A stretch of 64,000 nucleotides of DNA, taken from assembly GCA_942492525.1 (NCBI GenBank), contig CALOFI010000005.1, positions 1-64,000 of the forward strand. The letters are read 5' to 3'. Each line of letters opens with the position of its first letter. The first letter of the stretch is position 1. Origin of the DNA: an uncultured Myxococcales bacterium (GTDB lineage Bacteria > Myxococcota_A > Polyangia > Haliangiales > Haliangiaceae). Below, one piece after another: positions 7,824 to 9,840 of this stretch. Position numbers and translations under genes: made by a program. The notes below the pieces were generated by a model. That model was not told the origin of the DNA, searched no databases, and saw nothing but the letters and a program-made list of their open reading frames with translations.

Positions 7824-9135
7824 TTATTGAGTGCCACCCTTTTTCCCACTGTTTTCCAGTAGTCTCAGCAATACCTTCCAAAAGTCTTGCACACTTGAGA
7901 TGCTAACGGCCTCATCAGGTGAGTGGGCATTAATGATCGTGGGTCCAAAAGAGATCATGTCCATCCCTTCATATTTTTCCCCGATGACACCGCACTCTAA
8001 ACCTGCATGGGTTGCCGCACGCCTGGGTTGATTCCCAAAGATCTCATGGTAGGTTTCCTCAAAGAGTTTCAAAATTTTTGAATGGGGATTTGGTTGCCAG
8101 CCGGGATATGAATCTTCCAGCTGGCTGGTTGCTCCGGCAAGATCTGCCACTGCCACGATCTGATCAATAGTGGCCTGGAGGGCCTGTGGTAAGGATGAAC
8201 GTGGTGTATTGTGAACAACAAAAATATCCCCCTTCATATGGGCTGATGAAAGATTGTTTGATGTTTCTACTAAATTGCCCAGTTCACTGTTCATTGCAAG
8301 CACACCATGGGGAAAGGCCAGGAGCATAGTAAGTGCTGTTGTTGAGGATTCTTTGGTCAAGACACGTGGGTGGTGCATTTGTTTGTGTGGCAGTAATCTG
8401 TAGTGCAGATTCATTGGGGAATTCGATCCGGCATAGATTATCCTGCCTGGTAATGATTTCTTGAACCCGGGGGAACTGTTTGCGGGGAATGTGCACAGGT
8501 GGCAAACCCTTCACGGGGGATGGCATTCAGCTTGTCCCCACTGTGAAAGTCAGCAAGGATAACACCCAGTTTTTCAAGTGCGATTACGGTGCGTGCCGTT
8601 AGCTTCACGGCGTTACCACGGTTTTCATGAATGTCAATTCCCGAATGACCACCCTGTAACCGGTCAGCTTTACCTCCAGGCCCACTGAGTCCGCGGGGGG
8701 CTCCATCAGCTTAACTGGCAAAGAGGTTGTAACACCACCACCACCTGCGCACCCGATACAAACACCACCGGTTCTCTCCGAATCGAGGTTGAGCAGAATA
8801 CGGCCTTTTAAGAGGGAAGGGGAAAGATTCAGTGCACCGGTTAAACCGGTTTCTTCATTGACGGTGAGCAGAATCTCAAGGGGACCGTGCACAGCTTCAT
8901 TTGTGAAGGCTACTGCCAGGGCAGCTGCTACACCAATGCCGTTGTCAGCCCCGAGGGTGGTGCCATCTGCCCTGAGCCAGTCTCCGTCACGGACCAGTCG
9001 TATGGCATCTTTTGTAAAATCAAAGTCAACATCCTTGTTTTTTTCACAAACCATGTCCAGGTGTCCCTGTAAAATCACTGTGGGTACCTTTTCGTATCCC
9101 GGAGTAGCAGGGACAGCTATACAGAGGTTACCGGA
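7824..9135 (-). pseudogene. pepD: Aminoacyl-histidine dipeptidase (PepD, peptidase M20C); 5'-truncated at the composition junction and frameshifted
   Basis: GNLCIAVPATPGYEKVPTVILQGHLDMV, ...NLDSERTGGVCIGCAGGG..., KLTG..GGHSGIDIHENRGNAVK..., and a C-terminus ...YPGWQPNPHSKILKLFEETYHEIFGNQPRRAATHAGLECGVIGEKYEGMDMISFGPTIINAHSPDEAVSISSVQDFW all match PepD along its length. The reading frame changes at about 8655 (a missing t in ggtta), about 8490 and about 8420. The first roughly 60 codons are absent, replaced by high-GC sequence from about 9135. Confidence 0.75.
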
Positions 9136-9140
9136 AGTGG
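9130..9140. other. Abrupt base-composition junction (low-GC to high-GC); candidate chimeric join
   Basis: The low-GC sequence ...accggaagtgg is immediately followed by tccgatcgatcgtccgcgcgcag..., and the region stays over 70% GC to the end of the window. The junction lies inside pepD and truncates an AAA_16 gene. ORF 8605..9840 is an accidental in-frame fusion across the join. Confidence 0.7.
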
Positions 9141-9840
9141 TCCGATCGATCGTCCGCGCGCAGTGCGTGATGAACAGCGGGTTTCCGCCGGTGAGCGCGA
9201 CCAGGCGATCGATCAGCGCGGGCGCGAGCGCGCCCCCCGTGCAGTCCTGCGCGAGCGCCGCGACGTCGGCCCGCGCCAGCGGCGCGAGCGCCAGCTCGGC
9301 GCCGTCGCGGATCATCCGGCCCAGGCGGAGTTCGACCCGCTCGTCGCGTCGCGGATCGCCGGCGCGTGCGGTGACCACGATCACCGCCCCGAGCGCACCG
9401 ACCGGCCGCGCCAAGAACGCGAGCAGATCGAGCGTCTGGAGATCCGCCACGTGTGCGTCCTCGATGATCCACACCACGACCTGCGTGCTGGTCGCGGTCG
9501 CGAGCGCGCCGAGCACGTCCTCCCACAGCTCGAACGGCGTGCGGGTCCCGGGCTCGACGGCGAGCGCGCGCAGGCACGGCCAGACCGGGAAGTACGGCGG
9601 CGCGTCCGCAAGCTCCCACGCACGGCCATGGACGACGACCGCCCCGTCGCGCGCGGCCGCTCGCGCGAACGCCTCCACCAGCGCCGTCTTGCCGAGGCCT
9701 GCCTCGCCGCTGACCACGATCAGCCGGCCCCGCCCGAGCCGCGCGCTCGCCAGCGTGTCGCGGAGGACGGCCAAGTCGGGCGCGCGCCCTCGGAGCTCGA
9801 GCTGATCGGTCGACGTCCGGCGATTGTATGTGCGATCCAC
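9136..9840 (-). CDS. N-terminal AAA_16 (STAND NTPase) domain fragment, 3'-truncated at junction
   Basis: Walker A VVSGEAGLGKTALVEAFARAAARDGAVVVHG, then ...WIIEDAHVADLQTLDLL..., typical of the N-terminus of large LuxR/TPR/kinase-associated STAND ATPases. Only about 235 aa remain before the junction. Confidence 0.5.

Follow-up and report, generated by a model that had tools for sequence, protein, structure and literature searches.

A probable artefactual join of Desulfobacterota-like and Myxococcota-like DNA in a contig of an uncultured Myxococcales bacterium

The first 64,000 nt of contig CALOFI010000005.1 (assembly GCA_942492525.1, an uncultured Myxococcales bacterium), hereafter called the window, carry an unusual open reading frame (ORF) in which the beginning of a STAND ATPase gene of the AAA_16 family runs directly into pepD, the gene for an aminoacyl-histidine dipeptidase, and inside which the G+C content changes abruptly. 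The question raised by this locus is whether the fused ORF, and the compositional boundary that it spans, belong to a real chromosome or were created during sequencing and assembly. The results described below indicate that the junction, which lies between nt 9138 and 9139, is very probably an artefact of sequencing or assembly that joins the DNA of two unrelated bacteria of soil or sediment. It would then be without biological reality and should not be treated as a real feature, as it resembles a chimeric contig in every property that could be tested. An artefactual join of low-GC to high-GC DNA, cutting two unrelated genes, had already been proposed in the initial annotation of the window, and this is still the best-supported explanation, given that four related contigs run past the breakpoint and that the two sides differ sharply in their content of small insertions and deletions (indels).

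The breakpoint and the fused reading frame

Every 1-kb bin up to nt 9000 has a G+C content of 43–51%, and each later bin one of 67–81%, with overall values of 47.3% (nt 1–9138) and 75.1% (nt 9139–64000). The switch is a step and shows no gradient. Even the 200-base flanks at the junction stand at 50.5% (left) against 76.0% (right), and a two-state maximum-likelihood model places the change point at nt 9150, with a support interval of 9123–9185. Tetranucleotide frequencies behave in the same way: the mean distance across the junction is 0.104 (minimum 0.090), while chunks taken from the same side are separated by a mean of 0.022–0.023 (maximum 0.042), so that the cross-junction distance is more than twice the largest same-side value. 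Composition changes at one point. These data, which include the tetranucleotide comparison that had been proposed as a check, bear out the break in G+C content that had been noted inside a gene at nt 9100–9170 and the description of the right-hand side as exceeding 70% G+C. The left-hand side had been described as AT-rich, which at 47% G+C it is not really.

The exact position of the breakpoint was defined by homology to four related contigs (L001–L004, described below). The blastn end points of all four agree, and homology ends exactly at nt 9138. When read in the orientation of pepD, the window has ...GATCGGACC up to the junction and ACTTCCGGTAACC after it, whereas L002 has ...GCAGGAGGAT followed by the same ACTTCCGGTAACC, and the other relatives read like L002. 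The switch is therefore at 9138/9139, and not at 9135/9136 as first given.

On the pepD side, residues of the fused ORF from 235 onwards align to residues from 52 onwards of an intact 488-aa PepD (P0121), with 87% identity. The 5' truncation of pepD had been correctly recognised, but the loss is 51 codons and not the approximately 60 originally estimated. While the fragment is a clear PepD orthologue at this level of identity, it does not form the complete, continuous frame of about 488 aa that an intact gene would have. Three window-specific 1-bp indels break it near nt 8658, 8490 and 8365, tblastn places it in two frames, and it is because of these frameshifts that the fused ORF stops at nt 8605.

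On the ATPase side, the match to AAA_16 covers profile positions 2–166 of 167 (Pfam, E = 2e-17), as expected for an N-terminal P-loop NTPase domain. The best homologues are proteins of 990–1,050 aa (44–59% identity), of which only residues 1 to ~230 are covered by the 234 ATPase residues of the window. Similarity ends at about ORF residue 231–233, the alignment to the 1,042-aa homologue P0247 stopping at 'CARTI'; that the gene had been cut was thus well founded, although the point is slightly upstream of the approximately 235 codons proposed. STAND NTPases of this family have about 1,040 aa with a helical/TPR C-terminal region; the roughly 800 C-terminal residues present in the homologues are absent from the ORF, and no orthologous match to residues 244–1042 of P0247 occurs elsewhere in the window. 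The sole other match to these residues is weak and paralogous (30% identity), and falls in a second AAA_16 gene at about 28.9–29.6 kb. P0247 (locus L088) is the nearest full-length ATPase, with 59% identity, and the genes around it show no synteny to the window. A degenerate DNA pattern for GGNPLFITHCA gave no matches in the JGI metagenomes.

A single nucleotide position takes away 10% of pepD and 78% of an unrelated ATPase gene. The fusion of the two fragments in frame, as originally annotated, was found together with both of its domains (Table 1). In the public record the fused ORF is represented by a 389-aa protein (P0001, 100% identical) on one NCBI contig of 142,399 bp, and among approximately 15 billion proteins this forms a cluster with one member, from one contig. 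No other protein in the searched databases combines AAA_16 with Peptidase_M20. The ORF is best explained as an artefact of gene calling across the join, in which nothing works as a unit.

Neither repeats nor inverted repeats were found at the junction, and the 20-mer that spans it occurs only once in the window. No filler or adapter-like sequence was visible on reading through the junction, an explicit adapter search not having been made. The 64-kb window has no tRNA genes, and no integrase or transposase was detected by Pfam on the low-GC side. Two unrelated genes have been cut at this point, and neither recombination nor mobility has left a signature. Nor is the junction reproduced in independent data: a junction 27-mer had no matches in the JGI metagenomes, and the fused locus was absent from the GTDB representative genomes scanned, results that carry little weight inasmuch as the searched collections do not include a close relative of the high-GC organism.

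Table 1. Coordinates of the segments, genes and junction discussed in the text
Feature	Position (nt)	Strand	Remarks
Low-GC segment, 47% G+C, Desulfobacterota-like	1..9138		Collinear with L001–L004; continues past the left edge of the window
47-aa tandem-repeat protein gene	5048..7269	+	Split over three reading frames
Hc1 histone-H1-like gene, intact	7482..7679	+	Pfam Hc1, E = 4.7e-19; 95% identical to Hc1 of L002
pepD fragment (aminoacyl-histidine dipeptidase, M20 family)	7824..9138	-	Codons 1–51 missing; Pfam Peptidase_M20 in both pieces
In-frame fusion ORF, 411 codons	8605..9840	-	AAA_16 at residues 16–155 and Peptidase_M20 at residues 256–341 (Pfam)
Breakpoint 9138/9139	9136..9141		Low-GC homology ends at 9138; ATPase coding sequence begins at 9139
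AAA_16 STAND ATPase, N-terminal ~232 codons (NTPase domain)	9139..9840	-	~800 C-terminal codons missing
High-GC segment, 75% G+C, Myxococcota-like chromosome	9139..64000		Intact long ORFs

Relatives and consensus quality of the two sides

The genes of the low-GC side are, in order from the left edge of the window, PilY1 (partial), a 23S-IVS protein, PilX, a second 23S-IVS protein, minor pilins, a protein with 47-aa repeats, Hc1 and pepD. This is a conserved chromosomal neighbourhood in all four relatives, one example lying inside a contig of 685 kb, and is not a mobile element. The relatives are independent public contigs, representing three or more different samples or assemblies, and comprise L001 and L003 (contig_52151 and contig_22301 of ENA ERZ25039514), L002 (contig_32546 of ENA ERZ25039603, the 685-kb contig) and L004, which was recovered by a genome scan (CAVVWZ010000080.1, 'uncultured delta proteobacterium', isolate MFD03551.bin.2.80). 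Their common gene order is FMN reductase, 3-hydroxyacyl-CoA dehydrogenase, TP_0789-like, SurA/rotamase, pepD and Hc1, followed by the 47-aa-repeat protein, minor pilins interleaved with 23S-IVS proteins, PilX, PilY1 and PilB. Nucleotides 1–9138 of the window are collinear with these contigs at 85–95% DNA identity, and most of the encoded proteins are 89–97% identical. The identity between L001 and L002 is 99.0–99.8%, and that between L003 and L004 is 96.7–98.3%. The low-GC side of the window represents a further, third lineage of this clade, and its tetranucleotide signature matches that of L002 (distance 0.011–0.015). Beyond the breakpoint, all four relatives run on at low G+C through the remaining 51 codons of pepD and into a SurA-like/rotamase gene. 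The window contains no SurA homologue.

In the fused ORF, the PepD half shares 84–92% identity with proteins encoded on metagenome contigs, and one of these is named at source as 'Thermodesulfobacteriota bacterium'. Judged by these proteins and by the syntenic contigs, the low-GC side derives from a Desulfobacterota-like ('delta proteobacterium') population. An origin in the Bacteroidota, which had been suggested initially, was rejected, since PepD proteins of Bacteroidota/Ignavibacteria reach only about 50–65% identity, as against 84–92% for the delta-proteobacterial and Thermodesulfobacteriota ones, and the syntenic relatives at 85–95% DNA identity are given the latter names at source. The Hc1, 23S-IVS and minor-pilin genes that had been read as Bacteroidota markers occur in the same order in the delta-proteobacterial contigs.

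The high-GC side is dense in Ser/Thr kinase, FHA, WD40, TPR and GGDEF genes, and also encodes an OPT transporter, RCC1-repeat and MVP-like proteins, and a Mur ligase. Named homologues of the OPT transporter belong to Archangium and the Myxococcaceae (57–60% identity; the closest homologue of all has 78%), and those of the ATPase to the Kofleriaceae (53–54%). Myxococcota-like seems a fair label for this side, and the Myxococcota hallmarks originally ascribed to it agree with these homologues and with the density of signalling genes. The two flanks follow different lineages, at the DNA level for the low-GC side and at the protein level only for the high-GC side.

A marked difference between the two sides lies in the quality of their reading frames. 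In the low-GC sequence that can be aligned, about 6.8 kb including coding and intergenic parts, there are approximately 10 frameshifting indels that are specific to the window. These are mostly of 1 bp and lie outside homopolymers. Three are the indels in pepD, about seven are found in nt 1–5000, and there are additional frame changes inside the gene for the 47-aa-repeat protein. Window-specific substitutions are biased to third codon positions, with 14, 19 and 43 at positions 1, 2 and 3; the pattern is almost that of the control lineage (43, 16 and 81) and shows that the low-GC genes evolved under purifying selection. The frameshifts must then be either extremely recent or errors, and they look like read errors. 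Over the same stretch, L001 has five frameshifts of the same kind and the better-assembled L002 has one: a 185-aa gene of L001 (nt 13633–14190), which is one ORF in the window (nt 4148–4768), is split in L002 (nt 13732–14288) into genes of 76 and 109 aa. As a split gene is present even in the 685-kb contig, frameshift errors are widespread in these assemblies. The contig names of L001–L003 are in the style of metaFlye. L004 is from Microflora Danica, a long-read project the assemblies of which are Nanopore-only and were made with metaFlye and one round of Medaka polishing (PMC12313526). L001–L003 and the source of the window may represent the same kind of long-read data.

No frameshifts were found in nine ORFs of the high-GC side, of about 600–1,290 codons each and together covering about 23.5 kb, all of which have a third-position G+C content of at least 0.94 and full-length Pfam domains. 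At the indel rate of the low-GC side, the chance of finding no frameshift in about 23.5 kb is less than 1e-5. The phase of third-position G+C changes twice on this side, at approximately 42.6 and 46.7 kb, but these two candidate frameshifts were rejected as they are ordinary gene boundaries, the former between an RNA ligase gene and an HD-domain gene, and the latter between a divergent kinase gene and an RCC1-repeat gene. Read most simply, these data point to a large difference in read depth between the two sides at assembly, which would be incompatible with their lying on one molecule.

Window-specific changes on the low-GC side were close to balanced between AT-to-GC and GC-to-AT (47 vs 42), which suggests, as weak evidence and with little power to discriminate, that this DNA has not drifted towards the composition of a high-GC host. 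Mutation in bacteria is AT-biased, high-GC genomes included, and because of this the balanced counts are only weakly informative.

Several other genes of the window were also described in the course of the analysis. In the low-GC segment, two 23S-rRNA-IVS/bAvd-like four-helix-bundle genes (nt 1601–1810 and 2472–2858, both on the minus strand) are interleaved with minor-pilin genes (PilX, PilY1, GspH-like), an arrangement that is kept at about 15.4–17.0 kb in L001–L003, the relatives with gene tables. The 47-aa-repeat protein had no informative Pfam family. Its repeats were resolved by TRF as 12.5 copies of a 141-nt period (nt 5170–6938), and tblastn of the 455-aa homologue of L002 gave matches in frames +2, +3 and +1. 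The window gene is about 860 nt longer than this homologue, showing that copy number differs between lineages.

In the high-GC segment, the second AAA_16 STAND NTPase gene (nt 27336–31208, minus strand) is intact, encodes 1,290 aa with a fused N-terminal Ser/Thr kinase domain, and provides an example of a complete member of this class. A bacterial homologue of the eukaryotic Major Vault Protein (nt 21699–24164, plus strand; Pfam MVP_shoulder, 3.8e-26, and Vault_3) is preceded by an FHA-domain gene (nt 18474–19400) and a gene with CHASE and Ser/Thr kinase domains (nt 19452–21539), and nt 18432–24641 of the plus strand hold four consecutive stop-to-stop ORFs in one reading frame. The gene for a large RCC1-repeat protein (nt 45388–49200, plus strand; WD40_RLD, E = 4e-99) and a minus-strand Ser/Thr kinase gene are transcribed divergently, and the long ORFs of the two overlap as antisense open frames (nt 45268–49200). 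The minus strand at nt 41298–43585 carries an RNA ligase gene (full-length match to PF09414) with an HD-domain gene immediately after it, and the two may form an RNA repair pair.

How the join may have arisen

Under the preferred explanation, DNA from Desulfobacterota-like (47% G+C) and Myxococcota-like (75% G+C) members of one metagenome would have been joined end to end, most plausibly in a Nanopore assembly of the metaFlye type. A chimeric long read, or a few reads of low coverage, would have extended a well-covered high-GC contig into foreign sequence, and the foreign tail, being poorly covered, would have kept its uncorrected 1-bp indels. The reading frame would have been maintained across the join by chance (1 in 3), and for this reason a gene caller would produce a meaningless fusion of about 232 residues of the ATPase to PepD from residue 52. 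The difference in coverage, the chimeric read and the long-read origin of the source assembly are all inferred. A misjoin in the assembly graph at a shared repeat was also considered, and was rejected because the junction and its vicinity are free of shared repeats, palindromes and conserved elements.

A number of points weigh against an artefact. The lack of true spanning molecules is an inference, and the long-read nature of the source assembly is a guess from the type of error and from the origin of the relatives. Only a single boundary falls within the window, so the low-GC stretch could be either a short terminal tail or a bounded insert with the rest of the ATPase beyond it. In principle, its frameshifts might have arisen as true pseudogenising mutations after a transfer. 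Lastly, the undisturbed high-GC locus could not be rebuilt at the DNA level, because no close high-GC genome is present in the collections (nearest ATPase 59%, OPT transporter 78%).

One alternative is a genuine and very recent horizontal transfer, in which at least 9 kb of a Desulfobacterota chromosome, possibly released by lysed neighbours or prey, entered the STAND ATPase gene of a member of the Myxococcota by illegitimate (non-homologous) recombination and is now decaying into pseudogenes. The join is clean from base to base, with no adapter or filler, and substitutions at the second codon position are somewhat enriched in the window lineage (19/76 vs 16/140 in the control); read in this way, the frameshifts could be true pseudogenising mutations, and a second boundary could exist in addition to the one that is visible. 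Nevertheless, the transfer is considered unlikely, as it requires several coincidences, namely an arbitrary cargo, no signature of integration, and frameshifts that look just like the known assembly errors of this clade. No integrase, transposase, tRNA or repeat accompanies the junction, the cargo is ordinary chromosomal backbone broken in the middle of a gene, and its composition has not moved towards that of the host. The bias of substitutions to third positions implies that the genes were functional until essentially the present, the same type of frameshift occurs as plain assembly error in sister contigs, and the fusion has been observed once only. A reading in which the junction exists as a real molecule, a Myxococcota genome having only just captured 9 kb or more of Desulfobacterota chromosomal DNA by end-joining or illegitimate recombination inside a STAND ATPase gene, before any compositional drift and for example after uptake of DNA from lysed cells nearby, is very unlikely. 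Were it true, a genuine, undrifted capture would offer an unusually direct sight of illegitimate integration between phyla.

The abruptness of the join, with no sequence overlap or repeat and apparently no microhomology across it, and the difference in consensus quality between the sides would fit a concatenation or scaffolding of two contigs of one bin after assembly, with no N gap between them, at the stage of binning, curation or submission. This is improbable to a slightly greater degree again, as both sides end in mid-gene with no run of Ns or linker, binners that use composition rarely group contigs of 47% and 75% G+C, and the public record is a single contig of 142,399 bp. A concatenation is still an artefact, and the practical verdict would be the same. 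Since the low-GC sequence extends to the left edge of the window, the roles of host and insert might also be reversed, the contig then representing a Desulfobacterota chromosome with a genuine Myxococcota-like, high-GC island of at least 55 kb. This is barely credible: the genes of the 55 kb are those of a typical myxobacterial chromosome (kinases, OPT transporter, Mur ligase, GGDEF), with no mobility genes among them, pepD is cut in mid-gene, and the next gene on the low-GC chromosome is SurA in four of the four relatives.

With an artefactual join as the preferred reading, the public 142,399-bp contig very probably carries at least 9.1 kb from another phylum, and the nonsense fusion protein P0001 is already present in protein databases, so that the join deserves to be flagged as contamination of a public genome. 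Joins of this kind inflate the apparent rate of horizontal gene transfer, give rise to domain architectures that do not exist, and can distort statistics on taxonomy and contamination. The biological importance of the junction is very low, and its value lies in quality control. It also illustrates that a fairly firm diagnosis of a chimera can be reached in the absence of reads, from independent syntenic contigs that continue past the breakpoint and from a contrast in frameshift density.

Comparison with known systems

Natural multidomain gene fusions resemble the ORF at the junction in that one frame carries the domains of two families, AAA_16 and Peptidase_M20. They differ in that both partners are truncated here, PepD being without residues 1–51 and broken by frameshifts further downstream, and the ATPase having lost the C-terminal four-fifths of its length. 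For this reason, and because the architecture is not shared with any other protein in the searched databases, the ORF is not regarded as a natural fusion protein.

Horizontally acquired genomic islands share with the window a block of foreign composition beside native DNA and an interrupted host gene. In contrast to such islands, there is no integration machinery, insertion sequence, tRNA target or flanking direct repeat. In place of discrete mobile or accessory cargo, the low-GC side consists of donor backbone broken inside pepD, with no compositional drift and no second occurrence. An island would have two boundaries and, past the insert, the other half of its target gene; the 64 kb of the window take in one boundary, and the part of the ATPase corresponding to residues ~244–1,042 does not lie within them.

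The closest parallel is with the inter-genome chimeric contigs of metagenome assemblies, misjoins driven by chimeric reads for which tools such as GUNC screen. The present case departs from these in two respects: no shared repeat explains a misjoin of the graph, so a chimeric read is assumed, and in place of the coverage step and spanning reads by which such contigs are defined there is a proxy, the contrast in frameshift density between the sides. In common with them, composition changes in a single step, the flanks are collinear with different lineages, genes are cut, no mobile element has left a signature, the junction is seen once, and consensus quality is unequal between the sides.

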